A stretch of DNA of 64,000 bases from Marsupella aquatica (taxonomy: Eukaryota > Plantae > Marchantiophyta): assembly GCA_973895155.1 (NCBI GenBank), contig OZ316897.1:18863111-18927110 (forward strand), read 5' to 3'. The notes under the pieces are model-generated. The model saw nothing but the letters and a program-made list of their open reading frames with translations. It did not search any database and was not told the DNA's origin. Position numbers and translations under genes: made by a program. Shown here one piece after another: positions 17,226-48,923 of the stretch. The number at the start of each line of letters is the position of its first letter. Position 1 is the stretch's first letter.

Positions 17226-17885
17226 TCAAATCCAAGATATGTGGCTCCTAGCAGGAGTGCCTAGTGTAGGGTCAATGTCATGGTCAGGACAGTAAAACAT
17301 CCCCTTCTTGGGCTGCCCATGCGCTGAGTGATCCCAAATTGTTCGATCATGGGCAAATCCCCTCTGCTGGATAAACAACAGGCAGTCCTTGTGCCATGCC
17401 TTAGGACACCTCATGCACTGAACCAAAAAGCCATTAGCCCCATCATTGGGCCCCTGTCCACAAGTAAGACAAATATGGAGTCCACATGATGCTGTGCCAG
17501 GAACCAAACACTGCCGACAGTAAAACTGGGCACAGAGAGGGTCTGGACATTTTCTTACCTCTTCACCAATTTTTCCAGACACATGGCACTTAAAGCAAGA
17601 ATGTTCATCATTCTTGCAATCAACACAAAGCCATTCTCCAACATGGCCATCAGCCAGGGATATAGTTGGGCATAGCCATTGCTGACCCAAAGGACAGGAA
17701 ACATTCTTATGGAAATGTCGGTGGCAAGGCCCATCACAAACAATGAGATCCCCTCCCTCATCACAAATTGCACATACATGTGGACTATTTTGGTTAATCT
17801 CAATGTCTGAATATAAGGCCAATTGAGGTGCTTGAGAGGATTCACCTCTGCAACGATTCATGGCCTTCTGCTTATTGCGAGCCAT
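17226..17885 (-). CDS. EDM2-like composite PHD-finger protein (219 aa) with histone-H3-like N-terminus; transposon cargo
   Basis: VCAICDEGGDLIVCDGPCHRHFH...C..C...H.CFKC...KC...C..FY...CGLHIC..C...CMRCPKAWHKDCL...YCPDHDIDPTLGTPARSHI follows the EDM2 PHD module, including its C-terminal YCxxHxIDxxLxTPxRxH motif. ATG at 17885 is in an ACCATGG context and gives MARNKQKA. Intact and intronless. Confidence 0.85.
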   Translation of the reverse strand: MARNKQKAMNRCRGESSQAPQLALYSDIEINQNSPHVCAICDEGGDLIVCDGPCHRHFHKNVSCPLGQQWLCPTISLADGHVGEWLCVDCKNDEHSCFKCHVSGKIGEEVRKCPDPLCAQFYCRQCLVPGTASCGLHICLTCGQGPNDGANGFLVQCMRCPKAWHKDCLLFIQQRGFAHDRTIWDHSAHGQPKKGMFYCPDHDIDPTLGTPARSHISWI

Positions 17886-18506
17886 GGTCCTGCACACTCA
17901 GACCCTACATCAAATTGTGAAACAAGAAGGAATAACAGGGTGCAACATGACACAAAAGAATGAGGGTGCAGCATAAAATATGACATGTAACCACAAGCAC
18001 AACTACATTTCACTACGTCGTGACTTCCTTTCGCGTCATGTGACACGACGTTACACCCCAGTACATCTCCCTCTACGTCGTAACCCAAAATGGGTTTACC
18101 CATTTGACTTTCCTTCCCATTTTACGTCGTCTAGAGGGTCTTTAATTTAACGTATCTCCCAATAGGGCTATTTACGTCTTTTATAACGAGGCAAACATGT
18201 AGACGTCGTCCCAGACGGTGTAGCAGAATAGGGTTGGGTCGACGTATAGATGTACGTCGTTTCAGACGTGGCTATAACAGATACTATGATATGACGACGT
18301 ATAATGGATGTTGGGCGATGTTAGACATATATGACCAATGTGGGAAACAACGTTAATGGAATCCAATTGGCATGCGTAAGGTTTTTTGCGGGAGTTTTTG
18401 GGGCAAGGCTACTGGGACCTCACTGCACAGGTCATTCGTGATTTCAGATGTCCTACGGGTACGATAGTGCACAGAATTTGCAGAGTGAGATTGAAAGTCT
18501 TCAGCT

Positions 18507-19067
18507 ATGGTACGTAAGATATTCAAGGATGTCCACTGTTGTTTTCTTCCGCTAGGTGAAGAAGACAAGACTGTTCATGGCTTTTTTTGTCGTGGAGGTG
18601 TGATAGACAAGTTTTGTAACTCAAAGACGGAATACTTGCTTGCCAATACCTGGAAACAAGTCACAGAGCACTTCAGTGACTATCCTGGATTGATCGAGCA
18701 CTTTGCAGAGTCCGTGCATTTCATCTCGATTTGTTGGGTACAGTACTCCATTCTGGGCAATAAGGAGTTGGACCCAGAAGAGTTTTTGCTGCATCCAGGG
18801 GATGATTTGATGCTGGACGATACGCCCAAGGATGATGATGGTGAGGCTTGTCCACCAAAGTTGGCTAAATGTCAGTTGTCACCGACTAAACTTGATATTG
18901 TGATGTATGACTACAAGGAAAGCTGTGCAGCTGAGATTGAGGCTGAAAGGCTGAAGGTTGGTGAAGCAGTGGTCCGCAAGAAATGGAACGCCAGCAATAG
19001 GCGTGATTTGTACAAAAAGAGGAAGGCAGATGAGGAGTACTACTGGTCTGGTGAAGGGACCCCTTAA
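18507..19067 (+). CDS. Unknown cargo ORF of element B (186 aa), convergent with the transposase
   Basis: Open frame with protein-like composition, flanked on both sides by ACGT-motif arrays; no recognisable domain. Confidence 0.5.
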   Translation: MVRKIFKDVHCCFLPLGEEDKTVHGFFCRGGVIDKFCNSKTEYLLANTWKQVTEHFSDYPGLIEHFAESVHFISICWVQYSILGNKELDPEEFLLHPGDDLMLDDTPKDDDGEACPPKLAKCQLSPTKLDIVMYDYKESCAAEIEAERLKVGEAVVRKKWNASNRRDLYKKRKADEEYYWSGEGTP

Positions 19068-19703
19068 GCTACACTAGTGCCAAGGTCAGCTGGAGACGGA
19101 GGAGCATCATTTGCCTAGGATTGGAATCAGTTTAGACTGGAGTCAGACTCATGCCTTATGTGCACGTTGTATGTTTCTGAGCGCATGAATAAAAAGTCCC
19201 TCCCAGGCAATTTATATTTGTAATGTGTTTTGTGAGTAACGTCGATTGAAACTTTGAACGTCATCAGAAGAATGGTTAAATAAACGTTTACGTCGTTTAA
19301 GACACGGTAACACAATCAACGTCGTCTAATACGAGGTAAACCAAGGACGTACTATGTATACGTCGTTTGTACAACGTATCTACGACGTAACTATAGATTA
19401 ACGTCTTCATTATGGGTATAAGCGACCTTTGATTGTCTAATGACGTTGAGGTTGACGTTAATAAGTTCGAAGTGTCAATTGGCCTACGTGATAAGGGTTT
19501 ACGTGCTAGGACCCATTGAAGGTTGTTCGAAGGCCGAGGTTTAATGCTTTTTAATGTGTTCTTAGCTATAAAGTGAGGAAAGACGAAACTTTGCACAACT
19601 CTCCCTCCAATTTGCCAGATCTCAAACGTCGAAACATATGTCAATATATATGTGGAAGGTGGGCATAGCCAATACATATAAATGGAGGGTGTGAAGGATA
19701 GTG

Positions 19704-22700
19704 TCAGTCCGCATCGTCTGCAAGGACTGATGCCATGAAGCCCTTCCTTCGCCGAGGGAAAATTGGTATGACAATGGACCATCCTCTCATGGTCTGCATC
19801 GGAACCATAATGCACTGATCCACCTGGCTAGGAAAAACTATGGTGTCACTAAACTCAGTCCCTGTGGGTGCAACTCGGGTTGTGTCCACGCGATAAAAAC
19901 CACACTCATCCGCAACCATCGTAGCTCTCGCTGGGGGTGACATGATCGACTTGTGCCACCTCACCTCTAGTACAGTGGTGACAAATGACCCAAAATGAAC
20001 ATCTAAAATGTCCACAACTGTCCCACAATAAGGAACCTCTACATCATCTACATCAGTCATCATGAAGATTCCAGAGTTACAAGTACTCTTCTTCATATGG
20101 TCTGTCCTCCAAGTCCGAAAGTGATGCCCTGACTCATACATGTGTGTATGAGTCGTGGCCCGCATCCCTGGCCCTCTAATGATGTTTTGTACATCAATGG
20201 GAATGGATGTAGACCCATGCACAGCCAAGAGCCTCTCCATGCGCTCCAAAGCCCAGACATGAAATGATGCAATGCCACGACCTGCTTGCGCAACTCCCAC
20301 TTGAAGCTCCAACCATGCACTGCCAAATACGTTGTCACAAGATTGTTAGAGATTTGCAGCCTTCTCAAATCCAATTCACAATCGATTAAAATTTTAGAGT
20401 ACCATACCTATACATCTCCCTCCAATCAGACATCTCCGGTCGATTCCCCAACACATAATTATGGATCTGTCGACGAAATATGTCATCATCCAATGATCGC
20501 TTCTTGGCCGCACCCATCAATCGCAGCCCACCATTGTCATCATCTTGTGCCTCTTCCCAAGTTGTGGGAGCTTTGCTATCCAAACTCCCTATCACCCCCC
20601 GAAATAGAAAAGACACTCTGACATAATGAACCCTGTTGCCATACGTCCCTCAGGTCGAGCGGGTTGACGCACCCAACCCTTGAGCACCTTCATATATCGC
20701 TCAACCCAATACATCCATCGGGCATGGACTGGGCCTGCAATGGCAACTTCATCCACCAGGTGACATAGCAAATGCATTTGCATGTCAAACAGTGCTGGGG
20801 GGAACACTCGCTCCAAATTGCACATCACTTGCGCTGTCCTCTCCCTCATCAAAGGAATCTCTGACTCCTTGATCTCCTTGGCACATACCCACCTATGAGG
20901 CACTCAAAAACATGACAGGAATAAATATCACCGCCCAATCTGAAAGTGGGCTAAGATGGTTACCAATTCAATGCCTACTAACATTCCCTCTACTAAGATT
21001 CCTACAAACGTCGCTCTGCAGGACGTTCCTGAAGAGGGGTGACTTATACGACCTTGAATACGTCGTATGTGGAGTCTTATTTTTACATTACCTAGTTATA
21101 GATGACGTAAAGTATTAAGAGACTACGTATCCTCTCTAGAATGTCGTTTGAGACACCATAAATTTATGGTCCCATAACACCACAAAATCCACGAGTAAGA
21201 TATTTCCAACCTGAAAATGGAGCACAACTCGTACACTGTGAGTTGGAGTAGGTGGCGCTCTCTAGAATCATCGCAACAATGCAACACTGCAGGGAGCACA
21301 TGCTGTATCAGCTTGTGATAATCGTGGGACTTCAACCCTATCGGGGGGATGTACTCATTCCTCGTTGTGCACCCACGGAATCCAGCTCTGTAATGGCTCG
21401 GGAACTTCATCTCACAAATCATCCCATTCACATCCTTCAGAATGTCTCGAGGCAAAATCCAAGGGGCTGGTGGTGTCACCCCAGTACGTGCTGTCCAATA
21501 ATTAAAGAGAATCAACTTGTTAGGGTTTGGGGTTTCAGGCAAATCCGGGCAACTTCTTACAAATTAAGGGTTGATCGATGTTTTATCATGTACCTGATAT
21601 CCAACAGCTCTTCACAACTCCTACATTCTTTGCATCCACACGAACTCCACGAGTATCATTCTCACCATACATGTGCTTCACCAAATTCTTTGCGACATTC
21701 ACTTCAATGTGCATGGGGTCCAGTAGCCACCGGATCTTGAGCATCTGCTTGCACAACATGGTAATCAAGTGAAAAACTCTAGCATTATGAGAGTTGATGA
21801 AAAAATCTATACACAACATTTGATAGGTGTATTGTACCTACCCTCCAATAAGGCAAGTCCCACAATGCTGAGCGTCAGTTTACTCCACAATCTTTGGGTT
21901 TCAGCAGCTTAGCCTCCACCATCTCTGCCATTTGAATTTGAGCTTCTGCTGAAGGCGCATTAGGACATGGTCTTAACTCAATCTGTGCCCAATGTCTTGT
22001 GTTACATCGCATGGGGTCATCCATTGACAATCTCATCCTGCTGCCCTCATATGTGGTTTTGTGCAATAGTACTGAGTACCTCCCATGCAACTCAGGGCCA
22101 CATGAAGGGCAACCTGAGTACCCAGCCACCTTCAAGCCTGATATTGTGCCCATGCCTGCCAAAGAAACCCCATCATATTCCCACAATAAAAGAAGCCAAA
22201 TGAAGACATAAAGTCATTTAGCACAATATAATCACATTTTGTAAGGTTTTTGAATTACCGGGCCCATCAGTGGTGCAATGGGTGATCATGACTCTCATGT
22301 TGAATGTCCTCCCATTGTCCGGTGCACGGGTGACATCTGTTGTTGGAGCCCCAATTTCCCACAAGTCATGTAGCTCTTCATAAGCTGGGGCCAAGCAAAC
22401 ATCTGGATTCTTGCAAGCCTCGGGACCGGGAATGATAGCTAGGAGGAGAACATGACCTTTTTTCATCGCCAACCATGGAGGGATGTTCTGATTTATCAAA
22501 AGAACTGGCCAAATGGACTTTGGTTTCCGTCGCTGCTTGTATGGGTTTACCCCATCTATGGCCAACCCCAACCAAACATTCCGTGGCTCTGCAGCAAAAT
22601 CTGGCCATGTGGCATCAATGTGCTTCCATGCTGGACTATCTTGGTGATACCGCATTATCCCTGTTGGGGATTTGGTCTCGGCATGCCAAGTCTGTAGGGA

Positions 22701-25606
22701 GGATAGGTGTCTTCGCCGGTATAGATGCTGCAATCGGGGTGTGATTGGAAAATACCTCAGTACCTGAATGTACAACAACCATGAGGCGGCATTTCGTCGT
22801 TAACATCACAAATATGTTGACGATAACTACGTTCCAAAAATCTTTACGATGTTCAATACGACATATTACTTCTGTATTGAACATAACTACGTATCCTAAA
22901 AGTGAATGACGTTATAGTTTCATGTTGAGCAGATCTATGTTCTCTAAACTTTTACGTTGCAAAAAGCAACGTTGGACTAAAAAACGTCGTATGGAAAGAC
23001 GTAAAAATCACAAGGGAGATGTTAGGGTTATTTACTTCTAGTTGAAAGACGTACTACTCACGAGGGCAACGTTAAGGGACACAAAATCCCGTAAAGTAGT
23101 CAAAAATTACTAAAATACAGATGTGGTACAGAGAGGATGTCATTACCTTCTCAGCAATCTTGTCTCCAATGGTATCAGGACGATACCGTGGAAGGCCACA
23201 TCGCTCAATTGGGCAATGGGTGAGGTCCAAGTACGGTCCTCTATACAAGATGCACCCATGAGGGCACATATGTATAGTCTCTAACGCCAGTCCGATAGAT
23301 GATAACAACTTCTTAGCCTCCCTCACACATCCTGGAAGGTTGTTAGGTTGAGGCAAGAGTTTGTTGTGGAACAACGCAAAGAGTGCATCTGTATGGACAT
23401 CTGATCCATTGAAAACCCCCTGTAAATTCAACATCAAGAGTGTGGCTCCCAACCTGCATTTGCATTGAAAACCACAAAGAAACCAGCTTTTTAATTAGTT
23501 TAAGGCATGCCATTGAGGATGGTCCAATTGGGGACTTAGGGTTTATGCACACCCTTAAGCAACATTACAGTAGAAAAACTATAATAGCACCTCAGAGAAA
23601 TGTACCGTGAGGTCGGGGAACCCTGGAATAGCGGAGTCCTGGATTCAGTTTCCAATTGGTCCCAATCATCTTCGTCTAGTTCCATGACAGGAGGGTCACC
23701 CTCAGGTACATGAGGTCCAAAGTGGATGTCCACAAGGTGCGCAAAAGCATCCTCTTCAAGAATAGGTGCATCCATATCATCCTCTACATCTTCATCAAAA
23801 TCGTCATCATGTGCATCATGGTACTCATTCACATCCTCGTCCACATCCTCGTCCTCATGCACATGATCACTCTCAACATCTTCGTCGTCAGAAAAAGATA
23901 ATGTGGCTCGCATGTGGAACGAACGGGCTGACTCCGTCATCATCGATGGATGAGGTGTAGGTGTTATATTTGGACCATCCTATGCAAGACGTCAATATTA
24001 GATAAGGTCATCCCCAAATTAGACAATGTGTTCCCAATAGTGCATGAGGTAATGAAGGTCAAAGAATCCAATATAAGTCTCACTCTGAGTAATGAATAAG
24101 TGATCAATAACATATATAATCTTCAATGCCAATCATAGTCTACAAATATCTCATCCCCTGCTCGAATGGTGCGGGTGGCATGTGTCAGGATGTAGTGACT
24201 GCATCCCAAGGGCAAACGAGGGTGACTCTGGTCATGGTACTCATGCCACTCAGCGTTGGGGCGGAACCCCAAACGCCGACACCCCACTGTGCTATTGATG
24301 TAACCCGCCAAGTTTCCAGTACGAGGGGGGTAACCATCCATCTGAGTATACCTAGGGTCCAACTTAAGTGACATGCCATACCGACCAAAGGTTGGGCATT
24401 GGCGAGACAAGATACGCCATCTATGGGCCGAATACTTTGGCCCATAAAATGGAATCAACTCGGGCAGGTCCTCAGGTGCACAACCTTCCGGCACCACAAT
24501 ATCCACGAGTGCAAATAATCCAAGACCTACGTCGTCTCCCAATGTGGATGGGAGGAGGACCCATGGCCTATCCCAAACTACAATAGGCTCCCGAACAAGC
24601 AGGACCATAGGGAGGCCAAACTGGGTTGGGAATGAGTCCTTTATGATGTCCAAGGCTCTCCCTCTTAACTCTCTTGGTGCTCGGGAAAAAGAGGCATCAA
24701 GAAAAGGACAGTGTGGCGGCACCGTCCTAGGGGTACGAGACGTAATGGACCGAGGTCTAGTGGTGACCTCTACTCCCCTCTCAATAGGGTGACTCCGAAT
24801 GACCCTCCTCCTCCTATCAAAAACACGGTCTATTGCCCTTAATGTGGCATCGAGTGCTGATGGGGGAACTAGTGCTGTGAGCGCGCGACGTGCAACCTGT
24901 CTCATGTGGTCCAAGGGCGGAGAGACCACACACAAAATCTGTTTCACATGTGAACAAGAGAACTTCAGAAATCAGGGAAAAAACCATTTCAACTAAACAC
25001 TCAAGAAACTCAAGAAACCCAAACATGTTATATTCAAAAATAAGGACTTAATGAATTGAATAGTGTCAATAAAGGTTTATGAATTACCTGATGTGTCGGG
25101 GGTACGTAACGGCCGTGGAGGCCTAAATGGCTAAGGACAGTGGTCCTCTCGTGGGAGACGACGCCCTTGCATCTACTACATGGGCAGGGCATCTTTCGGA
25201 CTGGGCCAATCCCCTGAAGGGCAGCCATGGCCTCTCCAAACCTATCCTCATCCTCCGGCATGGGTGATCGGTGTCGGGGTGTGTGGTCATCAGAGGGAGA
25301 CCTGGACCGGCGGTGGCGGTGGGACTGTCGATGGGACCTCCTATGCCTTCGTCGCTCCCGATGTCGATGATCCCTAGATCGGTACTCCCTATCTGAAGAC
25401 TGATCCCAACTCCTCTCAGACGAATGGTGCCTGCTCCTATCAGATGATAAGTCCCTCCTCCTCTCGGCTGAGTGGTATCTCGACCTCGCAGGTGAGTGCT
25501 CCCTCCTCCTCTCCCTCCCCCTATCATGAGAGCGGTACCTGTCTCGGTGATGTGCACCTCCATCATAGCGATCATCAGATGACCACTCCGATGAGCACGA
25601 GGCCAT
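19704..25606 (-). pseudogene. Multi-exon CACTA transposase of element B, with at least one premature stop
   Basis: Exon 1 (25606-25088) has PCPCSRC...HLGLHG. Later exons start at 23979, ~23453, ~22763 and onward and carry RYFPITPRLQHLY, DGVNPY, DPMHIEVNV, GLKSHDYH and WMYWVERYMKVLKGWVRQPARPEG. TGA at 21877-21875. Confidence 0.9.
24123..25606 (-). CDS. SET-domain (lysine methyltransferase-like) protein; predicted splice 25606-25088 + 24938-24123, about 444 aa
   Basis: SET motifs VGLGLFALVDI, FYG, GNLAGYINS...PNAEW and ATRTIRAGDEIFVDY. Phase-0 donor CAG|GTAATT at 25088 joins phase-0 acceptor AAACAG|ATT at 24938. Confidence 0.8.
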
Positions 25607-26124
25607 GGCCTGCAATAGTACACACACATATACACGCAAACTTGCAAACTCAGCCTTGGAAATGGAACGTCGGGACCACTATAGTACCACAATATTTACG
25701 TCAAGTAAAACGAAGTACTTTCACTTTACGTCGCCGAGAACACAATACACGACGTATTTCTTAAACCCTACGTCATGTACCGTACCCCACACGACGTTAC
25801 AGTAAACCCTACCTTTTAACGGTGTACAGAACAACGTTTAAATGAAAACGTCGTCTAGCACAACGTATTACTAATCGATCAATTAGGGCATCGTCATGAA
25901 AAACGATGTAAATAGACAGAGAACGGCGGAAACACATTGTTGCAAACTCTGCCGCATTCTATTCGGAAAATACCGGGACATAGTGTCGAATGTGAGTCAT
26001 TCGACCATTCCGCACACACCTCACCCCACATCTAGTGTTCTATTCTGTTCGTGGCTCTAGTGAAGCTCTAGTGAAGCTCTAATCTTTGTGAAGGTCATCT
26101 ACATTTGCTCCAAGTCTCGCCTCA

Positions 26125-28131
26125 ATGTCACGTCCAGCTTATCTGCCCCTCAGTATCAACTTTGATGCTGTGAAAGTTTCCATGGAAGACCCAGAGGAGG
26201 TGGAGAAGGTTCGAACAGCTTTGCGGTCAGCACATTCACTGATTGATGCTTTCAATCAGAGTTGGCAATTCATGGGAGGAACTGGGACGAAGGAGTCACG
26301 ATTTTTGGAATACCTTCAGAACATAGAAGAGAACGCTCCAGCATCCGACGTTGAGCCCGACATTCAAGCACCAGAGTTCTTGCGCGACCTTCCGGGGGCA
26401 TCACTTGATCCTCTTGCTTCCTTCCCGCCCTTGATGGACTCAGTCTGGGACTATCCCTCGTTCTCTGGGATGGAGTCGGATTCACAACCACCCTGTGTTA
26501 CTCCCATCAAGAGCCAAGTGAGGATTCAAAGATATGAGCCTGATGATTCAAGTACAGAGTTGCGGACACACAGAAGGCGACGTCGTTCCCGTTCTTTGAG
26601 TAGCAATAGTAGCATTGAGAGGAGACAAAAAAAAGGGGAAGGGAAAGGAGCGCAGAGAAAGAGACAGCCGCAGCACAACAAGAGAAAAAGGGTTGAACGA
26701 GATTCGAGGGTGGACAGAGATAGGAGAGGTCGAAGGTCACATCGACATTCACATTCAATCGGAGGAGGTCATCGGCGAGCTTCTCCTAACCGAACCGTTG
26801 CTACTCTTGCCAGCAAAGAACAACTGCCGGTCATCAGCCTGGCTGCTTTTGATGCGAAGCCAGAGGTGCTTGATGAGAAGGCGCTAACGAATCGAGTGCA
26901 GGTCTGCTGTACGAAACACTGCCCTGGGTGGACGACTTGGAAGGACCTCGTGCACAATACAAAGAAGTTTCAAGTACTCCTCAATGACATACAGGCCGGA
27001 TTCAAGAATGGCAGAGAGATTGATTTTCGACACATCAGGCAGAAGATTGTGAGTTTCCTTGCTGACAGAAGATTCAGGTGGAGAAGCAAGGTCCGAGCAA
27101 TGAAATGCGAGAAGACAGGGCAGTACCGTAAGCCTGAAGGGATGGCCGAGTCGGACTTCAACTTGATCGTGTCTGAACTTGAAGCACCCCCAGACACCCT
27201 AGTAGGAAAATGAGTGCACATGGGTGACAAAGCCACTGCAGCTCGAAAGAATAGCGGACGCCTTCTAGTAACCAATTTCTGGGGGCAAGGAGGATGGCGA
27301 GGGTTCCTCGCAACCTACGTAAGTCTCGGACCCAACTTCCACATTTTCATTTTGCTGCTCCGGTGTAAACCATAGTGTAACGTCGAGATTTTGAAATTAC
27401 GTCGCCTGATTCATTCATAACGTCGTCCATAACAACGTTAACTTTGATTTGTAACTTCATCTTAGACGTACCTTAGGAAGAACGTCGTCCTTGAGACATT
27501 ACATGTACCGCTTTAGTGAAAATGTCGTTAGAGCGACGTTAACTAGATATGCAACGCATGGAACGACGTTAGCACCGATGCTGAGAGGGTTGAATACGTG
27601 CTTAGGAACGACGTTCTTTTGCTTTCTCGCAGAAACGCAAGTTTGGTGTCGATGCCGAGCCGTCGGAGGAGGAGCGGCTGTACTCGAAACGGTATGGCCC
27701 GGCAGCGCTATGGGCCAAGTTGGCCTCAGTCCCGGAGGATCACCGGGTAAGAGCTAAAGTGATTGCTAGGTTGTAGTTGACTTTAGGCCTACTCTGTGAC
27801 ATTAACTGACCAGAATGCTATCATGCAGGTGGAGGATTGGACTCCTCCGGAGGGCTTGGTTGCACGGGCCATCCCTGAGGATCACTTGCCAGCCAGGGTA
27901 CCGCCCGAGGAGGGTTTGCAGGAGGAGGCTCACGTAGATTGCGGGCAGGAGGAGGGAGAGACTCATGGGGGGCGTACTAGTGGCCAAGGCCGGAGGGAGA
28001 GAGAGAGAGCCAAGGGAGGGAGAGAGAGGGAGATAGGGAGAGGTCAGATAGACAGAGGGGGAGGGAGAGGGAGAGGAGGAGGAGGGATGACACTAGGCGA
28101 CCTCCACACAGTAAGGGGAGTAGGCCAGTGA
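26125..28131 (+). pseudogene. TnpA/Ptta-like second gene of element B, divergent from the transposase
   Basis: WTTWKDL...KFQVLLNDIQAGF...FLADRRFRWR...KPEGM...FNLIV pattern and NFWGQGGW resemble En/Spm ORF2 proteins. In-frame TGA at 27211; further exons at ~27633-27746 and from ~27829. Confidence 0.6.
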
Positions 28132-30519
28132 CTACTCATAGGGCTGCAACACAAGCAGATACGTTGTCCCCCAGTACCACTAGCTTAGAGGAGGATGACT
28201 CCAGGTACGAGTTGCGCCCGAGAGGCGTACAACCCACTTCTACAAGCAGGTCTGGACGTGATACCAGGCGGACTGAGCGTGACTAGGGTATAGCCTATTT
28301 TACTTGCCCGACTTCATCCTCCATTTTGTACATATTTGGCCCATAACAATATTATCTAATACGACACTTTTCGCGGATTACAACGTCTATACCATATGCA
28401 TATTGAATGTGTATCCCTAAACCCCAACTGCCTACCCAAATAATGCTCACCCCATTGTAACCCTAGCTTAAGTGTGTTTATAACCTCCAATAAGGTTGTA
28501 TGGCAGGGTCCGACATAATATACGGGGCGTCGTTCATTCATAAAGTTACCAAGCTTCTCACAAGGTATGACCCAGACGTAGTCTTCCACTTTCACACAAC
28601 GTCGTTCATGACATCGATATATGATAACAACGTCTTATCACACCACGTAAACCAATGAACGAATTCACATTACATCAAACGGAACGGTGTCCCAGACATC
28701 GTTACAAACACTGACGTTGTCTTATACGAGGGAGTCAACGTCGTCAATCACGACGTTTTGTTTGTATTAACGTCAGTTCGTGCGACATTCAATGGACATG
28801 GAAATCTACATTAGCCCAGTACTCTAACGATGCATAGGACGTTGTGCACACAAAGAACCACGTTGGCGGTGTGGCAATGTGCGTTGTGTGAGACGACGTA
28901 AGAAACCACATCAATATAGACGTCCGGAACGTTGCCAATTTTACCTTGGGGATTCCGTGTTTCCATTTAGAGTTTCATACGTCGAGATTAGCCTGTTGTG
29001 AGGCAACGTTAAGTTAAGTCAAAATGTAGTTGTGAAGGGAGCAGCATAAACCAATGCTTTATGGATGGCAAAGCACTAGGACTGAGCAACGCAAATAACC
29101 TTGGCCTATGATTGGAAGCAATCACAAATATTGCAACCTGTATGCCTTTGCCTTCTGTCCAGCAGTGCTCACTCACCCTGCCTTTTTTAAATCTGTAAGG
29201 GCAACACAAAACAAATAGCAATTGAGTTTCAGCAAAGCATTGGTTCTCAAGTTTTAAAATGGACAGACTTGTTTCATTGTCTGCCTTGTGCGCAGCAGGC
29301 TAAGACCGATCAGGGCAAATAATTTATATATTCAAGTAGTGAGAGCTACAAAATTTGCTGGGACAGTTTTCTAGTTCTGGATCCTGCTGCGCTTTATATA
29401 CAGCAGCAACCTGAATTCAATTTTTATAGACCATTAGATTGGGGTGTTTCTTTTCACCACGGCTATTACTTCAATGAAATCACTATTGTTTCATGTTTAC
29501 TTCAATAGTCTCGTGGCAATCGAAGGGTTCGGAACTTAACATAGCAGACACAAAAAATGTATGCTAAGCAGGAGGAGAAACAGGGCAATAGAGCAACATA
29601 GCAAGAAGGCAGGGGTAGCATGGCAAAAGGAAAGAGTAAATTGAAACTATGAAACATAGCCAGATTGAAGGGGAAGAAGAGCACAACCTCTTGCAGCTCC
29701 CGTTTCTCCTCCTGTAGCTCCCGATGTAACCTCCCGCAGCTCCCGCAGCACACTGACAAACGGTGAGACCTCCTGCAGCTCTTCCCGCAGATCCTGCCTG
29801 TTGTGACCTCTTGAAGCTCCACCAATGTGACCTCCCGCACCTCCACCACTTCTCTGTAGCTTAGTTATCCCCAATCATAGCTTGCAGCTCCTTCCCAATG
29901 AGCCCTAAACCACTCCTCGCAGCCGAGCTCGCAGCTTATGACCCGCAGGTTATCACCAATCACAGCTTGTCGCCCTTCGCTGAGGTAGCCTCCCGCAGCT
30001 CCTTTGTAATGTATTGTCCCAAGTCTCCTCCTCACCCACTGGTTATCATCGATTGCACGTCGTCGCCCTTTGCAGCTTTCTGAGACATATAGCTCCAACA
30101 TTAACGCCAAATGCTCCGCAATGTTGCGTGACACTGCAACAATGGATTGGAGCTCTTCCGTGGTAGTAGCTCCCAAGTCCTACCGGCTCACCCTAAGCTT
30201 TCCTACTCCCCTGACCGCGCACAGCACCCTGATACAGTTTTTGGGAAGAAACGGAGTGCGCACTCCACAAAGCTGTCTCAACTCGCAACTGAACTCAAAT
30301 GCGCCCCGCACTCCATGCACATTGCCCACCGCCACATTCCTTTGATGAAAACGCGCACCTCAACCACAAAAACCCTACATTTCACAACTTGGGCTCGACT
30401 CGATATTTGCCGTTGTGCACCTCCAATGCAGATTTGCCGACCACTTTTGTTCCGAGGGCCTACTACAAGAACGCGGGAATTGGAGCACGATGTTGATTGT
30501 ATGATCCAGGGTGTGATCT

Positions 30520-39400: not shown

Positions 39401-39479
39401 TCAATGACTCTACAATTATGACCGGTGTCTGGAATGACTATTGAGTATTTTAATTTTCATATCTCTTGGGTTCTTTAAT

Positions 39480-39910
39480 GACTCTATAAATAGTCATTTA
39501 TGCAATAAGTCCATAATGACTGTATGTTATTGTAAACATTGAATATCGTAATTTTTAGATTGACCCTATATTTAGTCATTTATGCGACAAGTCCATCATG
39601 ACAGTATGTTATTGTAAACACCGATATATCCTAATTTCAAGAATGACTATGAAATTAGTCATTTATGAGAGAAGTCCATAATGACAGTATGTTCTTGTAA
39701 ACACTGATATATCCTAATTTCAAGATTGACCCTAGAGTTAGTCATTTATGAGAGAAGTCCATAATGACGGTATGTTCTTGTAAACACTGATATGTCCTAA
39801 TTTCAAGATTGACCTTAGAGTTAGTCATTTATGGGAGGAGTCCATAATGACAATATGTTGTTGTAAACACTGATATATTCTCATTTTCAGATTGACCCTA
39901 TATTTTGTCA
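39480..39910. repeat. ~83-bp tandem subterminal repeats
   Basis: AGTCATTTATG...AGTCCATAATGAC...TGTAAACACTGATAT recurs at 39492, 39574, 39657, 39740 and 39823. Confidence 0.85.
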
Positions 39911-40288
39911 TTTAACACCGTTGGTTAAAATGACGGTAATACATTTTTTGTCATTTATCACCGTTGTCCAAAATGACCTAAATAGATTTTTGGTCATTTC
40001 TATCATTGTCTAGAGTGACTATAATGTTGCTAAACACTGATTTATCATTGTTGTTATTATTTGCGTCATTTAAGACACGTGTCTAAATTGACCATTTAGG
40101 AAAATTGGGTCATTTTGGTCGCATCAGTCATTACAGACATTATACAAAATGACGCAAAAGTTAACATTTTGTCATTTCAGTCTGTTGGTCATTGTGGATA
40201 GTCATTCCCCTACATTCTTTTTGTGTCATTAGAAATTTTGGTCATTTATTTATCTCTGTCATTGGGTGATTGGTCATAAAGGGCCCTG

Positions 40289-40301
40289 TTTTCTTCTAGT
40301 G
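40289..40301 (-). mobile_element. Canonical CACTA terminal inverted repeat (CACTAGAAGAAAA); right end of a large CACTA element
   Basis: TTTTCTTCTAGTG ends the ATGAC-rich region and truncates the adjacent transposase ORF. ATA (40302-40304) is the candidate TSD; the partner TIR is not in the window. Confidence 0.8.
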
Positions 40302-42140
40302 ATAGTAAACATATCTTCTTGACATTTGTTCACGAAGATGTCGCGTTCTTTTCTCTTCAATCTCTGCACGCTCTTTTTTTCTCTTCTCCCGCATCAATTG
40401 ATCTTTGAACTCAGTGCAAAATGTGCACTTGGCAAATGCACTTCCCTTGTGAAAGTCAAAATTATCAAATGAGTTTTTCCAGATGTTGTACATAGTAACT
40501 TCAGTAACCTTAGCAAACCCATCTAATTCCATCTTGGTAAACACCTCTTGGAAAATCTCCTTCTTAGTAAAACAAGATGGGAGCCGATATTCAATAGTGT
40601 CAGTGCCGTTGGACCCACCATAGGGAAGATGTGGCATTGGTTCCCCATTTTGGATTAAAATGGACTCCAACAAGGCGCGAGCGTGCAAAGTGCTTGATCG
40701 TGTCTTCCATTGTCCCTGATTTCCATGGAAACCAATTGTGCAACCAGCTTCGAATTGATTTTTGTAGTCATAGTACTTTGTTGTACTGAACCCATGCATT
40801 TTAATAAATGCATCTTTACAAACCACACGTCCCTTTAGAACAAAAAATCCCTTTCTCTTGACTTGCTCCTCTCTACACCCAAAGAGACTAAAGATGTGAC
40901 TTGTTTTGTTGTCACTTGACATTCCATGGTATTCCCTCCTCATTGCCTCTAAGTCCTCTCTGGGCATGTTCAAGCAACACTTCAGCTTGCAACAACCTTC
41001 TCTTTGGATGGAATCAATGGACTCCTCGGTAATTTTCAAAAGTGCCCTCGACTCCAAATGCCTTTTCTTCTTCTCCTCAAGATCAACTTTTGTCCTCCTA
41101 ATGAAATTGTATGGTCTTTTTGTAGGTTTACCATCACCATCCGAATCCGGATCGCCCTTAGTTCAACCCAACTCCATCCACTTCTCTGAAACTTCCTCAA
41201 GGATATCCCCAAGAAACCTTTGAGACGAAATTAATAGAAGGGATTTGATTTCCCACCTCACCAAGCCAGGGGTACCAACACGGATATTTGGAAATAATCC
41301 GGGTTCATTGATATTCACAACAGCAACACCAACATGATCTGCACCAAGAAGTTCATCGTCAACGGCACCTGTTTCAAATGGGACCGTGATAACACCTGTT
41401 GCAACCTTCCGACAACGAGAAGCGTCATACAAATCAACCTCCTCCGCCATCCAGTTGGAACGTAGTGTAAAATCTTTTAATGGAAGATCATTGAAAATAT
41501 TTGAACTACCAAACACGCCAAAATCTCGTAGAGTGCCCTTTCTAGAAACATGCGCAACATCCCAAATAACCCAGGTATGCAAGGCCTCTTCTATTGTATC
41601 AGCTCCAGGGTGCGAGTATGGCAATTTTTGATTTCCCGTAACAATATCAGATATTCTTATATTGATGCGACCAACCCCGAGTGTTTCAGTATGACAAATA
41701 TCCATCGGATTTGTCTTGAAAACGACTCCATTTGCAACCAACTGATCAAAAATGAACATCTGAACTTCATCTCCTTCCTTGAACACGTCCTCTTCAACCC
41801 TTGCATCAATTTTGGATTTATCATTTCCAGCATCTCCAGCCAAAGAGAAATCATCGACATTGATTCTTCGGCGCTGAGTTGATGACCTCAAGTATGCCAA
41901 TGCACAATCCCAAATCATGCAGGAGTCAATTGCCTCAGCCAATGTAGAAAATTTGGGCGAAGGAAATGGAAGTTGACGCGATCCATCAAAACACTTTTTG
42001 ATCAATACCCCAATTCGATTATCCCCTAGACAAATGTTTTGTATAGTATCCTGGGGGTCAACCTTTTGAACTATCCCAATTGCCGTTTCAAATCCATCGA
42101 TCACCAATGACACTTCATCCCCTCGTGTAAAATTGATCAT
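40302..42140 (-). pseudogene. N-terminal half of a Sola-like (DUF7869-type) transposase fused to three Tnp1/DUF8039-like repeats; truncated by the CACTA insertion
   Basis: 41163..42140 and 40296..41057 are in frame across one TGA with no other stops. Three VAxGxV...LG...LPxP...W-type repeats precede CCKLKC, VCKDAFIKMHG, HGN, GEPMPH and FAKCTFC...HL. The family assignment is by eye. Confidence 0.55.
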
Positions 42141-42267
42141 GATAGCGGACTATCTGTATTCAAATAAAGTTAGAAATTGTTAAGTTCCCCATGTTACAAT
42201 CATGTTTCAAAATCTGGACTCTCCTTCAAAAAATATTGTAAAATCACTCAAAACCCTAAATACATTC

Positions 42268-42525
42268 AAGTCGGGTCGGAATTATTTTGACCCTCCTCCA
42301 ACATTATGTCTTAAAATGATTGAATTGACTAAACATTTACAAGTTGGGTCGGAATTATTTCGACCCTCCTCCAACAATATGTCTTAAAATGATTGAATTG
42401 ACTAAACATTTACAAGTTGGGTCGGAATTATTTCGACCCTCCTCCAACAATATGACTGTCTTAAAATGATTTAATTGACTAAACATTGACAAGTTGGGTC
42501 GGAATTATTTTGACCCTACTCCAAC
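42268..42525. repeat. Four ~73-bp tandem repeats with palindrome GGGTCGGAA-TTA-TTTCGACCC
   Basis: Copies at 42273, 42346, 42419 and 42496; an inverted copy near 42628-42644. Confidence 0.9.
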
Positions 42526-43713
42526 TATTAAGTTGAAATTATGTCAAAACTATTTGTGAAACTATCTTGCTTATGCTTTTATATACCAATTTAAAATGCT
42601 AGTTAAGATGACATAGTCAGGTCGGCACGAAATAATTCCGACCCACTTCTAGAAACTATGTTAGTAATCACATAAAGGGGTACAGTAAGTTCTACACATG
42701 CTAGAGTGTGGATAAAGGTCTAGAAATGAGTAAAATATATGATCTAGAAACTAATGTGTAAATCTTAATCTAGGTTTGGCTTAAAGGTATTGAATTAGAT
42801 GTAGTTGAGCTAGTACTTCTAAGATAAATAAATAAAATCACTAACCTGCTCCACAATATATCTCTGCCCACCCTTGTACAAGCTAAATGGGTACCTTGGA
42901 TGCCAGCATTGTAACTCTTAGCACCACAGTGCTCACCAGTGCCCTTACTAAACCTTGCATTCAACCATGCGGACCTAAACAAGGCACTCGGACAAAGGAG
43001 AGTCAGTGATCGTACCAATCACTGTCTAAATGACAATGAACCAAAAAATGGATTGTGGGAGGTCTATACTCAGTTTGAGAGGCAAAAAGCCCACACATTA
43101 CCCAGCACACGAGTGAACACCAACAGATCGGGCACGGGTGGATGAGGCACGCACCCAGCACACAAGTAGACATCGGATAGGGTGTCAGCCAATCACTCAC
43201 GAGTGATAGGTGAGTTGCGAGCACACACCGCTGACAGCTCGGAAGTTTAAAATTGGTAGGTGAGTCGCGAGTGGTCGTGAGTGGTCACACCATCGGTGAC
43301 TCACGATCACATGCAGTGATGAGGGTCTCCATCATTGGCGCGCATTGATGCCTCCGTACCCTCTCGGATCCTTGCCTCCTCGGACTCCTCGCTCGCAGGG
43401 GGTATAGGAAGGCAAGCCTTGCGCTTGAGGCCTCATTTCCTTGCCTCCCTCTTGCCTCCTCTCTTTCCTCCTCTCCGGGCTCCTCTCTCGTCTCCTCACT
43501 CCTTGCCTCCCTCTTGCCTCGCTCTAGGGCTTTTGTTTTTGCCTCGCTCTTGGGATTTTGTTTCCGCCTCGCTCTAAGGCTTTTATTTCCGCCTTTCTCC
43601 CTTCCCTTTTGGGTCGCTCCCTCGATCATTGTTTGCCTGTTAGTGCCCTCTTGCAGCCTGTGGCATTCTCCATTGCTGCCACATGTCATCTTAAATCTCA
43701 CTCGCCCCTTACA

Positions 43714-46700
43714 ATGTCTACTTCCTCCAGTTCTGAAGCTTCCACCACCTCCGCCAGTTCTCAAGAGTCATTGAACTTCAATTATAACTCTCTATATGAA
43801 TATGACCCTGAAGACCCGGATGTCCAAAAATTGGTTAACAATGCGTTGGAGGCGTCAAAGAAAGCCCAGTTAACTTTTCCACGTAAGGCACCACCTGCTT
43901 CAACTTCTTGCCTTGCCCTAAGGGCGAGACAACTTTACTTTAATTTGGATTTCAAACTTCTTATTAGGAAAATTTCTATATTCCTTTGCAGTCGCCTTGC
44001 CCCAAGGTCGAGGCGACGTCTACTTCATTCTAGATTTCTTGTTGCTCCGAAGGCGTATTGGACCTTCTATCTTACATTAATAAAGGATCTTTAGCTATAT
44101 TCTATTTTTTGCCTCGCTCTTGGGGCGAGGCGATGTCGTCTACATTCCTAAAATATAGTCTGCATTCCCAGAAGTTGCCTCGCCCTTGGGGCGAGGCGAT
44201 GTTATCTGCATTCCTAAATGTTGTCTGCATTCCCAGAAGTTGCCTCGCCCTTGGGGCGAGGCGATGTCCTCTACATTCCTAAATGTTGTCTGATTTCCCA
44301 GAAGTTGCCTCGCCCTTGGGGCGAGGCGATGTCCTCTGCATTCCTAAATGTTGTCTGCTTTCCCAGAAGTTGCCTCGCCCTTGGGGGGAGGTGATGTTGT
44401 CTGCATTCCTAAATGTTGTTTGCTTTCCCAGAAGTTGCCTCGCCCTTGGGGCGAGGTGATGTCGTCTGCATTCCTAAATAATGTTTGATTGCTTGGATGA
44501 GGTGGCAGGGCTAATTGCACTAGGAGCAAAGAAGATTTTGCAATCTTCTATTTGTCGCCTCGCCCCAAGGGCGAGGCACCTTGAAAGTTTTCCACATGTC
44601 AATGTTAAAAATATGATGCTGACCATTTTGTTTTCAATGTTTCTTACCAGGAAAAAATCTTGAGAAGCCGGAGTTAAATATTATGGACGAGGATATCAAG
44701 GACTTTGTTTTCCCTGACCAAGATACTCCAGGATTTAGATGGGCACTAGAAGTTGGGGTGTCGGCGGAAGGCAGTCTCTTGATTTGTTTCAAGGGCCTCA
44801 CAAGTCAATTGAATGACCGCAAGACAATTGTTACTCTAGGTCCAGTCGTCCTTGTGAACACGGACAACAACCGCAATGCAACAATTATTGTTGAGTCCAA
44901 TGAGAAATCTCAGTGGATGAGACTTCTGGTGCCAATAAAACTCTACTCAACTTTACTGAATGTTGAGTGGATGGCTTGATAGCGTAGCTGATAGCCCCAA
45001 GGGCGAGGCTGCCTTTTCTTGTTTTCCTTGGTTAGAAGATTAAAGCAAATGTTTGCCTTGCCCTCAGGGCGAGGCAACCTAGACTAGTCTCTCTAAGAAT
45101 AATTCCCTAGTTCCGTTTCAGTCAATTGCGGTTAGATGTAGAGGTTCGCCACGCCCTTGGGGCGAGGCGGCTTAGCTTGTTTCAAACATAGGTATAAATT
45201 TTCTAACATATGCATTGTACCCTGAAACTAATGTCAAGTCCATTGGATATGCAGGATTGGTTTGCCCTGGCAAAGGTTACAATGGGGAAGTCAAGCCTAA
45301 AGAGCATTTATTGGTTACTTTTTGCCGAAGATGAGCTCTTTGAATTATGGCGGAACGTGTGTGCAAAATGGTTGAGTGGGAAGCTCCAAGACGGGGCTGG
45401 TGGGTATGGAGGGCCAAGACCCCCAAAATTGATCACTCCTAGTACCTTTTGATGCTTTGAAGGAGAGATTAGTGCAAACAGATAATTGAGATCTTGAAGG
45501 ACGTTGAAGAGGAGCGTGTCTTGCTGAAGAAGGATATCACCAACAAATCAGAGCTTGTCGCAATGGGAGACTTGGCCCTTACAATCAAGATAATGTCCAA
45601 ATTGAGAACAGTCATTATTGGCTATTTCGTGAAAAAGTATCGTGAGAAGTTTCCTGTTTGGCACATCTTGGGAGTCTCTGGTGATATTGTTGCCTTCCTT
45701 GAAATCTGAGCTTGAGATGACAAAATTGAGGAGAGCAACGGGTGAGGTTTACCTCAACAATTCATTGAAGAAGAATGTGGTCAAGGAGAGTTTCCCACAA
45801 AGTCTGATGGTCAGACTAGATGGGTTGTATTGTAAAGAATTTGGTGGGATTGGTCGTTTTCGCACGGAGCCTTTCTTGACATTTTTTAGTGATAATTTGA
45901 TGAAGACGACCGTGCCAGAAATGCTACAAGAGCCTTCGCCTTTGTGTCCTCTTGCCATTGTTGACTTCAGTAGGCTCCGACAACATGTTTGGATCGATGC
46001 TGAAATTATTGCATTACTGCAATACATTGTGGATCTTCCAAGAAATCCAACAATTGTTGTTGTCATGACTGTGCATCCGGGGCCACTTGCTGCAAACATT
46101 TTGAGTGCCCTTAGGAAATTGCAACATGAAAAGGGAATGGACATCCACATTGACTACGGGAGCTATCGACGGAGTGATACACCAGTTCCAGAGGGCTTAC
46201 TTTTCAGTTGTGGTATGAAGGAGATAATCTTTGCAGGAATCACCACTGAGGAGAAATTTGATTGGAAGCAAGTGTTCAGGCCTGGATTTAATTGCCGATT
46301 TTCTTACAATTTGGCAATCGACCCTGATTTCCAAGTGGAAGACAAGACGGAGAAGCGAGATAAGAATAAGAGTAAGACAAGTAAAGAGACAGAGACTGAG
46401 TCAACTTCGGCATTTCACATTGGAGATTTCTTACGAAAGGCTCCCATGTTTGAGATGGTGGGAAGTAGAGGTGGCTTTGTGAATATTCACGCTAAGCCAA
46501 AATGTATGCTGCAGAGTATTATTGAATTTTTTTCGGCTGAAGGGGAGACTATACTTGACTTTTTCTCGGGAGGACAGGTTATGAAGGTGTCATTGTTGTG
46601 TTTCAGAGGATGCTTTGCGTATTCAGACACTGAGAATGAATATGATTTCACTCACGCATATGGAAGGGTTCTCTGCGAGAAAGTTCCTTCCATAATGAGT

Positions 46701-48923
46701 GACCGGATGGGCGGTTCCAAATTTGGTAGAGCCTGCGATGGGGTTTCCGAGCATGTTGGCGCCAAAGAAGGCGTAGACCAGGGCGAAGATGAGATTGAGG
46801 AAGGAGAATTGGGTCACGACACAGACGATAGGGTCACCCAAAATTTGGATGAACGTGGAACACAAGTGGTAGGTATTCCCTACTTTGGTGTGGGGTTGGC
46901 CGATGTTGTGGGTCGACCTGAGGGCGACCCACCAAGAAATCCCTTTGCCGGTGTAGAGAATTGGATGCACCAGTCGGACCCAGATCTTACATCGTCCACA
47001 TCGGACGCACATTGGAAGGCAACCGCAGATGATCTAGGCAATATTGACGTAGTAGAATTGGGAGAAATGTCAGACATTGCGCTTGCAAAGGAGGATGATC
47101 GTCAAGTACCTGAGACCGCTGCAAATGAAGAAGAGAAGGCAGGTGCTTCAAATCCTCCCCTGTCTCCTCTATATTGCTCATCAGAGACTAAATTGGTTTT
47201 TACAAGTGCTTCTACAGGAAGCCCCATAGTATTATCATTTTCAGAAAATTCTGGATCCGAGATCGGCAGGACTGGATATATGAAAATAGTCTGTCTTGCA
47301 ACTCATTTTATATGGAGAAATGGACCAAAGGTTGGAATGATAGAATCACTAGATGATGCTCCAAAGATAATGGCAAAATCAAATTACAAAAAACTGAACT
47401 TGAGACTGATCCCAGTTTTTGCACCCCCATCCTTTGAAGAGCAACTTCCCAGTGGTATCAATTCCGAGATACAGAGTGTTCTAGGTGATCAAACAATAGA
47501 TGAATTTGGGCATTTTAGCATTGGAAATGATTAGCCCTTTCTTTGGTTCTTGGTATTTTAATGACAATCTAAGCTTTATCTTTGTAATAATATACTTTTT
47601 TACAGACCAAAGTTCCGTTGTAGAATCTCCTTCCTCAAAGGATTTTGTTGGCATTCCCTCGGAAAGCGTTGCTATGGAGGAAGGGTTTGACCCAGGTATA
47701 CTTTGGATCTAAAAAATGGCAAGTGAATGTAATTAATGTTTTTCTAGGAGGGTCGCCCCAGGGTCGTTCCTCTCTCCTTCAAATGCTATAACAAAGTTTG
47801 TTTGATTTCAAATTTTGAGAGTTTTCCTCCGTAGTAATTGTTTAAACTTTGAGTCGCATTGACTAAGGGCTTATTTTAATGTTTCCAGAATTCACTCCAA
47901 TACTACACTCTCTGATCCGGCGAAAGCTCTTGGTTCTTGACCTTAACAAGATTTGTTGGGATTGCATTAAGACCAGAAGCTCAGGACCATGGCGAAATCA
48001 GACAAGTTTACGTGGTGTGCACTGGGGAGACGTGGAGGGTTTAATTTCATGTATGTGGAGCGCCCATACCTCCACGAATTTCTATATGCAGCTTTCATGG
48101 TTTTTGACGTTGCAATTTGGACCTATGCAAGGAGGCCAAAAACAATGGACTTAATGGAGTTGATTTTCACTGAGGAGGAGCGAAAGAAGTTCAAGTTTGT
48201 CTTTACTCAAGAAGATACCTTTGATACTTGCATCCAAAGGCCAGATATAACAGATGGGAAGGCCAATTTACTTCTGAAGAATTTGCAAACCATTTGGGAC
48301 CGTTTTCCAGAAAAATATGATGCTTCTAATACAGTTATTGATGATTCTTTATTGAAGGCATTTTGAATTATGACGTGAATGGATTGTTTCCAAATCCATT
48401 CACTCACACAGCTTCAAATGACACTTTTTTGCCCAAGATATTATGGCCGTATCTTTGCAAATTGAGAAAGGCTTACTCCGTTCAACATTATATCACTGTC
48501 AACAATCCAAAGTGGTCTGTTTTCAATTTATTAACAAGCAAGGAGGATCATGCTACCATCTATGCTCTTTTGGAACAGAAGTGGGGAGATTGTCGTTGTA
48601 TCCATAAGGAGTTTGGAACCATCTTGGATGTGACTCCTGAAGAGATTCCTTGGGACGGAAAGAACGAGGTGCAACATTACCCACCACTGGAGACGTGGAC
48701 CACGCATGAGATCGAAGAAACTGCAAACGTAATACTTGGAGACAACTATTCTGGTCCTCATAGACAAAATAGAAGGCATTTTATTTGGAAAGTTCTCAGA
48801 ACTAGGGATCTCACCAATAAGTTTAAGAACCACCATGCGAGAGATACTTGCAACCGTGACATCCGCTATGATAAATCAGGAAGCAGACTTTCTTGTTCAA
48901 ATGAGTTTTGTCTTGATCATTAG
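43714..48923 (+). pseudogene. Multi-exon cargo gene(s): beta-class DNA N4/N6-methyltransferase-like domain, acidic linker, FCP1/NIF HAD phosphatase; frameshifted
   Basis: VNIHAKPKCMLQSIIEFFSAEGETILDFFSGG...RGC at ~46480-46615; KLLVLDLN...RPYLHEFL...FDVAIWT...KNLQTIW...NTVIDDS...NGLFP at ~47915-48400. Exon structure is uncertain. Confidence 0.65.
44111..44480. repeat. Six 65-bp tandem repeats with palindrome GCCTCGCCC-TTG-GGGCGAGGC
   Basis: Copies at 44111, 44177, 44242, 44307, 44372 and 44437; dispersed single copies between ~43516 and ~45170. Confidence 0.92.

Follow-up and report, generated by a model that had tools for sequence, protein, structure and literature searches.

Nested DNA transposon families with accessory genes of candidate chromatin type and clustered motifs in the liverwort Marsupella aquatica

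In this study, we analyzed a window of 64,000 nucleotides from the liverwort Marsupella aquatica (GenBank assembly GCA_973895155.1, contig OZ316897.1, forward-strand positions 18,863,111 to 18,927,110; positions below are counted from the first letter of this window). The window is eukaryotic and dense in transposable elements (TEs), and on the simplest reading it contains three multi-copy DNA transposon families nested in one another: element C contains element A, and A contains element B together with long terminal repeats (LTRs). An earlier note on this DNA had proposed three independent captures of accessory ("cargo") genes within about 30 kb. Three families with cargo are indeed present, and their proximity is explained by the nesting of multi-copy families. 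We regard as about evenly balanced the proposal that these three unrelated families each carry a conserved accessory of chromatin-protein type and a clustered motif of their own, and that the accessories would act on copies of their own family, keeping them transcribable or mobile.

Nested families and their motif clusters

Coordinates are collected in Table 1. Element B has short terminal inverted repeats (TIRs) starting with CAC (13/13 bp identical, CACAA variant rather than CACTA), a 3-bp target-site duplication (TSD), and an empty site in 4/4 runs, as expected of an EnSpm/CACTA element; its transposase matches PF02992 (Transposase_21, E 3.6e-37) and PF13960 (DUF4218, E 1.3e-29). The empty site is a joint from 17994 to 29035, found in contigs of all four runs. 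In run X1 its depth is 657, against 701 for the contig that covers the PHD gene of A, so that most A copies are without B.

Element A also has an EnSpm/CACTA transposase (PF02992, E 2.2e-43; PF13960, E 4.1e-36), with exons matching Transpos_assoc, Transposase_21, DUF4218 and DUF4216 in Pfam at 12681-16668 (-). It runs on leftward past an LTR insertion at 11202 to a true end beyond the window; only one A terminus (40301) is inside, and the paired CACTA TIRs and TSD lie partly outside. Since B (TSD AAG) and the solo LTR (TSD GATCT) are insertions, A probably extends to 40301 and owns the ATGAC arrays as subterminal repeats. The earlier note had described ATGAC arrays at the CACTA end at 40301; these arrays are present, built of repeats of about 570, 83 and 43 bp, and the end is probably that of A. 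Depth in X1 drops to about 210 at 29276-29942, a region that either varies between subfamilies or conceals another insertion.

The CACTA terminus at 40301 interrupts the transposase open reading frame (ORF) of C and brings a stop into it. In other copies this ORF continues, as seen from a loose end before 40302 in 3/4 runs. The left end and the catalytic core of C lie beyond the insertion, and the remaining part gave a lead, at 0.84, to a cluster with 11% DUF7869. Sola elements, to which the earlier note had likened C, are marked by a 4-bp TSD, a terminal motif and a Sola-type DDD core. The N-terminal part (41163-42149, -) apparently holds three repeats of one module without a Pfam match, which we take to resemble the C-terminal domain of TnpA proteins. 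On the right, the apparent end of C reads TAGTG at 49381-49385.

Motif counts were compared with 200 dinucleotide shuffles; tandem copies are not independent, so that the counts show presence, not selection. ACGTCGT occurs 26 times in B (shuffle mean 0.7, maximum 4), ATGAC 100 times in 35791-40301 (mean 14, maximum 25) and TCG-N9-CGA 9 times in C (mean 0.6, maximum 4). The shorter ACGTCG is found 39 times in B versus 5 times in the other 53 kb of the window; it clusters at both ends of B, in introns and between genes, with 34/39 copies non-coding (p 1e-9, on an approximate exon map). Dyads number 16 in the whole window, all in C and 15 of them in predicted introns of its two genes. B and C thus have family-private motif clusters in non-coding DNA, as VANC- or TnpA-type systems do, whereas in A the motif is terminal only: ATGAC is absent from the interior of A, where no private motif was found. 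Arrays confined to the terminus are ordinary for CACTA ends. We dropped the notion of ATGAC as a decayed form of ACGAC peculiar to the window copy, since ATGAC is read in other contigs too. Most simply, the clusters are putative binding sites of TnpA-type proteins.

Table 1. Coordinates of the elements, their genes and arrays, followed by other features
Feature	Position	Strand	Basis or remark
Element A, visible left part	11203..17997	-	CACTA transposase exons; Pfam; loose end before 11203
Stand-alone EDM2/NSD-type multi-PHD ORF	17226..17885	-	219 aa, single exon, open frame, H3-like N-terminus
Element B	17998..29034		Complete EnSpm-type, inserted in A; TIR CACAACTACATTT, TSD AAG
B accessory ORF, about 186 aa	18507..19067	+	No matching family found
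B transposase exons: acidic exon, Transposase_21, DUF4218	19704..23979	-	Pfam
SET-domain exon, stop at end	24123..24938	-	Predicted alternative terminal exon, phase-0 acceptor
Predicted shared first coding exon	25088..25606	-	Arg/Ser-rich stretch and Transpos_assoc zinc finger, phase-0 donor
Divergent TnpA-like gene (inferred)	26125..28285	+	Without Pfam match; position in element
Continuation of A beyond B	29038..30519		Joint 17994->29035 and depth; probably subfamily-variable, lower depth
ATGAC subterminal arrays and CACTA terminus CACTAGAAGAAAA	35791..40301	-	Probably the end of A
C transposase, N-terminal part	40302..42149	-	Severed by CACTA insertion; weak DUF7869 lead
73-bp tandem array, TCG-N9-CGA-type dyad	42267..42530		In predicted intron of C transposase gene
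C cargo gene, multi-exon	43714..48923	+	Frameshifted in window copy; Pfam, contigs, structure comparison
21-bp dyads, TCG-N9-CGA core	43910..45171		Predicted introns of cargo gene; include 65-bp tandem array 44109-44479
AT-rich right part of C	48924..49385		Approximate end; depth, X5 contig ending at 49387
Solo LTR	30520..35209	+	4.7 kb, TSD GATCT, inserted in A; outside the design
Host amino-acid transporter gene PF01490, intronless	54818-56311	+	Single-copy depth baseline

Cargo depth and the SET exon of element B

Depth was used as a rough guide only, not as copy number, the best run possibly being the window's own source. In X1, single-copy contigs have depths of 5.4-16.4. The contig covering the PHD ORF of A (16801-17988) reaches 701 and the A transposase contigs 770-800; the cargo contigs of C range from 421 to 515 (methylase-like part 480, NIF part 515), the B contigs from 123 to 158, and the SET bin stands at 552. 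Cargo depth was close to transposase depth in four runs (X1, X2, X3 and X5). In X5, from a third organism, the PHD gene has a depth of 26 versus 19-40 for A, and most of C 21-38. By this rough measure, the cargo genes are a property of their element families.

Part of the cargo is damaged in the window. The TnpA-like gene of B has a stop at 27211, replaced by a sense codon in contigs of four runs, and it weakly matches (E 0.001-0.01) a gene at the same place in three metagenomic SET loci (L005, L006 and L008). At this stop and at the frameshifts of the C cargo gene, the majority contigs have indels relative to the window, so that both genes are decayed in the window copy and the family frames are likely open.

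The earlier note had described B as carrying a SET domain and ACGTCGT arrays, and both were confirmed. The SET domain is recognized in Pfam (E 6e-5), and its structure model, which is confident (predicted local distance difference test, pLDDT, 83), has a SET fold, with a Z of about 12 in a structure search. The Gly pattern of motif I, the Asn of motif III and the Tyr of motif IV are present, and across 19 homolog clusters at 40-63% identity G141/F143, Y170, N210, G213, N216 and Y269 are invariant. Searched by profile, SET had no sequence match among solved structures, and neither the SET nor the PHD protein had relatives in viral contigs. Named close relatives of a cargo protein number just two, both from Calypogeia fissa; by homology, the SET cargo extends to at least this liverwort and three further lineages.

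These lineages come from 20 metagenome loci, namely L001, L002 and one family made of L003-L020. A CACTA transposase lies directly downstream of SET, on the same strand, in 12 of the 20, and 3 further loci have the zinc-finger exon upstream; 5/20 contigs end within 231 bp of SET. Two loci, L006 and L008, start from a CACTA terminus 3.7 kb upstream of SET, with different flanks. B and L001 agree in their exon phases: the first exon closes in phase 0, and the two exons that can follow it, SET and the next one of the transposase, both open in phase 0. Three phase-0 splice sites are thus common to the two at 46% identity; the linkage of SET and the phases of the exons are still found at 34-46% identity. 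We predict that SET is an alternative terminal exon sharing the N-terminal zinc finger of the transposase. As the SET exon ends in a stop, the transposase could be made only by skipping it.

The ratio of nonsynonymous to synonymous substitution rates (dN/dS) of SET is 0.85 among copies, alongside 0.84-0.86 for the transposase, and falls to 0.30 between subfamilies (L002 versus the L003-L020 family); deeper pairs are near saturation. In the distant SET-CACTA elements L006, L008 and L010, the enriched motif is TCGCAA, which forms clusters that extend inward from the terminus. By these comparisons SET is old and has been retained while the motif changes, which makes TnpA most likely the reader of the motif.

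Pack capture, covered in PMC13317346, offers another origin for the cargo, as sporadic and neutrally decaying copies of host exons. The frameshifts in the C cargo of the window and the dN/dS of 0.85 among copies of the distant SET family would suit such an origin. Against it, the breaks of the C cargo coincide with indels between the window and the majority contigs, the transposase decays at the same rate as SET, cargo depth matches element depth, SET linkage and exon phases are kept over the distances given above, and a long branch (1.5) separates the PHD clade from host EDM2. Pack-CACTA elements, which are non-autonomous and carry host fragments peculiar to single copies, also do not fit what was found, i.e. 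transposase-bearing elements with cargo at family depth and a conserved SET. For SET the Pack reading is already largely refuted, and overall we hold it to be very improbable. The earlier note had named such captures as the case that would overturn its proposal; for SET this case fails, and for the other two genes, PHD and methylase-like, it is unlikely.

Accessory proteins of elements A and C, and neighbouring features

The protein of A has NSD/EDM2-type PHDs (PF23004, E 2.5e-7; PF22908, E 6.8e-7). It is no EDM2 orthologue: it has PHDs only, in 219 aa, belongs to a separate clade and is without the ELP methyltransferase-like domain. Selaginella EDM2 is a named long relative, and three close homologs share 53-82% identity. 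A deeper search gave 371 matches, of which the best 150 were considered. A quick tree was built from 81 rows, the window protein and 80 fetched ones; the latter were short proteins and at most 45 longer ones of host-like type, P0115 and further rows of very small length being excluded. In this tree, 16 short stand-alone PHD proteins form one group (Shimodaira-Hasegawa-like approximate likelihood ratio test, SH-aLRT, 100), apart from host EDM2-like proteins and on a branch of 1.5.

The earlier note had read the start of this protein as a mimic of histone H3. The PHDs are borne out by Pfam and an H3-like tail is conserved in the family; mimicry itself is a good lead, not established. The comparison was with what we take to be the N-terminal sequence of H3. 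A start of the form [AST]-R-x-K is found in 12/17 clade members, with the consensus A-R-[P/T]-K-Q-[K/M]-A-K-K, which agrees with H3 at positions 1, 2, 4, 5, 7 and 9; the homolog at 82% identity starts with an exact five-residue match. Among the 12 tails, Q5 occurs in 5, A7 in 8 and K9 in 5. The non-basic Q5 and A7 thus also match H3, A7 in 8/12 versus 4.5% in basic control 9-mers, and 9/12 tails match H3 at two or more (>=2) free positions, versus 9.6% of 83 control 9-mers. No host-like protein has such a start (0/86). The other 5/17 clade members are without the motif, some of them perhaps as truncated gene calls. A complex prediction of the tail of one member (P0001) with the PHD region of the window protein scored 0.02.

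Three further observations concern this protein and its element. Four clade members (P0007, P0021, P0092, P0118) have Phe-Thr before the tail instead of Met, perhaps a sign of splicing or of initiation at a non-AUG codon. Short EDM2-type PHD proteins of a separate clade (P0051, P0109, P0114; two named Eleusine coracana) also start with MARxK, possibly by convergence on an H3-like or basic tail. Finally, an exon-like stretch downstream in A (12540-12470, -) holds the sole match, in six frames of the window, to a helix pattern that we take to be the HELLS/DDM1-binding helix of CDCA7. Should this helix be real, it would be another chromatin module in A, the second, directed at DDM1. The passages of PMC11343034 that define the CDCA7 helix give no sequence for comparison.

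The cargo gene of C was described in the earlier note as DNA-methyltransferase-like plus CTD-phosphatase-like, with TCG-N9-CGA arrays. The arrays and two domains of these types are there: a beta-class amino-methyltransferase-like domain (about 45950-46650), then a UBLCP1/NIF-type HAD domain (about 47900-48400). A working DNA methylase or CTD phosphatase is not what the motifs suggest; they are degenerate in both domains, which are likely inactive. Pfam gives E 0.0046 for N6_N4_Mtase, below its cut-off, and E 5.5e-7 for NIF, whose nearest solved relative is UBLCP1 (E 6.9e-6). The methylase-like domain has motif IV before motif I, FFSGG as an FxGxG-like motif I in 5/5 sequences, a match to M.RsrI (E 2e-4) and an atlas match at 0.90 to a PF01555 cluster. 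Four cargo homologs were found, three of them at 39-61% identity, and the methylase-like protein had no relatives in phage records. A descent of this domain from the ELP domain of EDM2 was rejected (hhalign probability 1%), and a ParB-like domain suspected in the exon at 44650-44976 was without support. The label "chromatin-type" is weakest for this cargo.

Other TEs surround these elements. A very high-depth Ty3-type family has 4.7-kb LTRs at 6540-11202 (-) and 30520-35209 (+), which hold an ORF of more than 1000 aa with a long coiled coil (31022-34291) and without a confident Pfam family. At 1-325, the end of a + copy of this LTR abuts the start of a - copy, probably by nested insertion. Directly after the apparent end of C, a fragment at 49386-49712 (+) resembles what we take to be the endonuclease end of a CRE-like non-LTR element, and 49914-50698 has 84-bp inverted arms 617 bp apart, similar to a miniature inverted-repeat TE.

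Precedents and possible functions

The earlier note had held the design to be unlike known cases. As far as the available text of the sources goes, the general design is already published, with precedents in red-algal Plavaka, HarbingerS, oomycete MuDR and fungal TET elements and also in VANC and TnpA. Catalogues of SET, methylase and TET genes borne by transposons exist for oomycetes, red algae and fungi; in the sources considered, the functions of these genes are proposed, not demonstrated. The giant red-algal Plavaka (EnSpm) elements PAG1-3 (bioRxiv 10.1101/2025.02.11.637652) carry PF01555 methylase and SET cargo, as found here, and tandem inverted-repeat arrays; their accessory genes move between TE families and self-modification is hypothesised. 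In Plavaka, methylase and SET form one protein with a ParB/2OG partner, whereas here they belong to separate elements; compared by description, the present case also differs in its SET, which is an exon of a Transposase_21 gene, in the degenerate motif of its methylase and in having a PHD protein as well. HarbingerS and oomycete MuDR elements carry SET, and fungal DNA transposons, including EnSpm, carry TET/JBP (PMC12730594). Unrelated lineages have in this way repeatedly taken up enzymes that modify chromatin or DNA, which is read as counter-silencing; these cases belong to other kingdoms and superfamilies, and their cargo is apparently in stand-alone genes.

Private motif arrays also have parallels. 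In VANDAL elements (PMC10398659), arrays lie in non-coding regions and differ between families, as here. VANDALs are MuDR elements in which the function of VANC is demonstrated, whereas ours are known from sequence alone, and a VANC-type family had no match in the Pfam scan of the window. Spm/CACTA TnpA has family-specific clustered motifs like those found here, and the Arabidopsis TnpA-Spm1 motif, CCVTCGCAAA, includes TCGCAA (bioRxiv 10.64898/2026.08.24.746577). The available text of that source has TnpA-Spm1 acting at termini via host demethylases and describes no SET or PHD cargo; clusters in B are also intronic. Given that B has its own divergent TnpA-like gene and that family-specific motifs are a published property of TnpA, the pairing of arrays with cargo put forward in the earlier note is not supported.

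For the proteins of A and C, the relevant comparisons are with host genes and one retroelement. The atypical PHD repeats of host EDM2 (PMC7529245) are of the same type as those of A, whose protein is without the acidic and ELP methyltransferase-like domains, belongs to a long-branch clade and adds the H3-like tail. Marchantia DN4MT1 (bioRxiv 10.1101/2021.02.12.428880) has an amino-methyltransferase fold in a liverwort; it is an active host gene with TSPPY where C has DF[STG]R. Inactive methylase domains are carried by DIRS1 (PMC4738411), as in C, although of another structural group and in a retroelement. The literature searched, with Repbase Reports, most subscription papers and bioRxiv supplements outside it, held no SET-bearing EnSpm in land plants, no such splice layout and no transposon PHD protein with an H3-like tail.

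If the accessories act on their own copies, the motif clusters would be read by the TnpA-type protein of the element, not by the cargo. Alternative splicing in B would give either a zinc finger-transposase or a zinc finger-SET protein, and the latter, brought to cognate copies, would methylate a lysine of a histone or of an element protein. The PHDs of A would dock on silent chromatin in the manner of host EDM2; EDM2 binds H3K9me2 and has some TEs under its control (PMC7529245). The tail of the A protein, free and similar to H3, might lure readers and writers of host H3K4/H3K9 as a decoy or bait. For C, a catalytically dead methylase fold might serve as DNA-binding or scaffold domain at the dyads.

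Several points weigh against this proposal. For SET, the structural matches are tied (EZH2, SET8, COMPASS and SET7/9 at Z 11.9-12.5) and prefer no subfamily; another residue, Ser in most homologs, takes the place of the His in the usual N-H motif; 18/20 loci are copies of one family, and the dN/dS of 0.30 opposes a single lineage (L002) to that one family. For the PHD tail, H3 position 3 is matched in only 3/12 (Pro, in 5, is commonest) and position 6 in 0/12; Met stands just before the motif in 8/12 and is absent in 4/12; and the members are kin, so that the tail is in effect one observation. For C, motif IV reads DF[STG]R, not (D/N/S)PP(Y/F), in 4/4 sequences covering the inferred position, and the methylase model is poor (pLDDT 41), its top Foldseek match, M.MboIIA (E 2e-3), being a lead only. 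The NIF motif reads DLNKI in the window copy, when FCP1/SCP CTD phosphatases have DxDx(T/V), and no contig bridging the transposase and cargo genes of C was among those listed.

From these points, one may argue that there is no common design, SET being the only chromatin enzyme, the PHD tail a nuclear-import or DNA-binding sequence and the C gene an unrelated scaffold. The Pro at position 3, the MARxK start of the separate Eleusine clade, the degenerate domains of C and the proximity of its NIF domain to UBLCP1 agree with this. We nevertheless find it unlikely: the non-basic Q5 and A7 also match H3, A7 well beyond the basic controls, and cargo joining a methylase with dyad arrays has a precedent in Plavaka. 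The accessories might also restrain their own elements, for instance if SET writes a repressive mark on copies of its family, and so reduce damage to the host. The tied top matches include SET domains of PRC2, and PRC2 represses TEs in bryophytes (bioRxiv 10.1101/2022.10.24.513474), but a tied ranking points to no substrate and no SET subfamily is assignable; restraint therefore seems to us improbable, more so than the absence of a common design.

Accessories under selection could instead serve transposition, in target-site choice, transpososome assembly or transposase regulation, any anti-silencing being left to TnpA. The SET exon is predicted to share the first exon of the transposase, PHD readers could tether to chromatin, the elements sit in a TE nest, and TnpA alone was sufficient for cognate hypomethylation in Arabidopsis (bioRxiv 10.64898/2026.08.24.746577). 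The clusters in B, however, are internal as well as terminal, unlike the targets of TnpA-Spm1 (termini) and like those of VANC (PMC10398659), and an H3-like tail has no obvious use for a targeting factor. We consider this explanation rather doubtful, if clearly less so than the two preceding ones.

Action of the accessories on their own copies could take a stronger form, as a histone-level counter-silencing toolkit in bryophyte DNA transposons, with a true H3 mimic on an EDM2-derived reader that diverts host H3K4/H3K9 machinery, a self-targeted zinc finger-SET that writes marks on its own copies and a dead methylase as a sequence-specific shield of the dyads. This is a tentative and rather doubtful possibility. 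If true, land plants would have transposons that encode a mimic of a histone and a histone methyltransferase directed at the elements themselves. A conserved tail resembling H3, carried by a transposon reader, would bring transposons within the range of histone mimicry, and SET, if guided by a motif, would amount to a chromatin editor with natural sequence specificity. Element B, which is complete, short (11 kb) and endowed with a defined motif, is suited to such tests. Whether transposons write or spoof histone marks on themselves is thus directly testable in liverwort-type plants, given Marchantia genetics and chromatin profiling.

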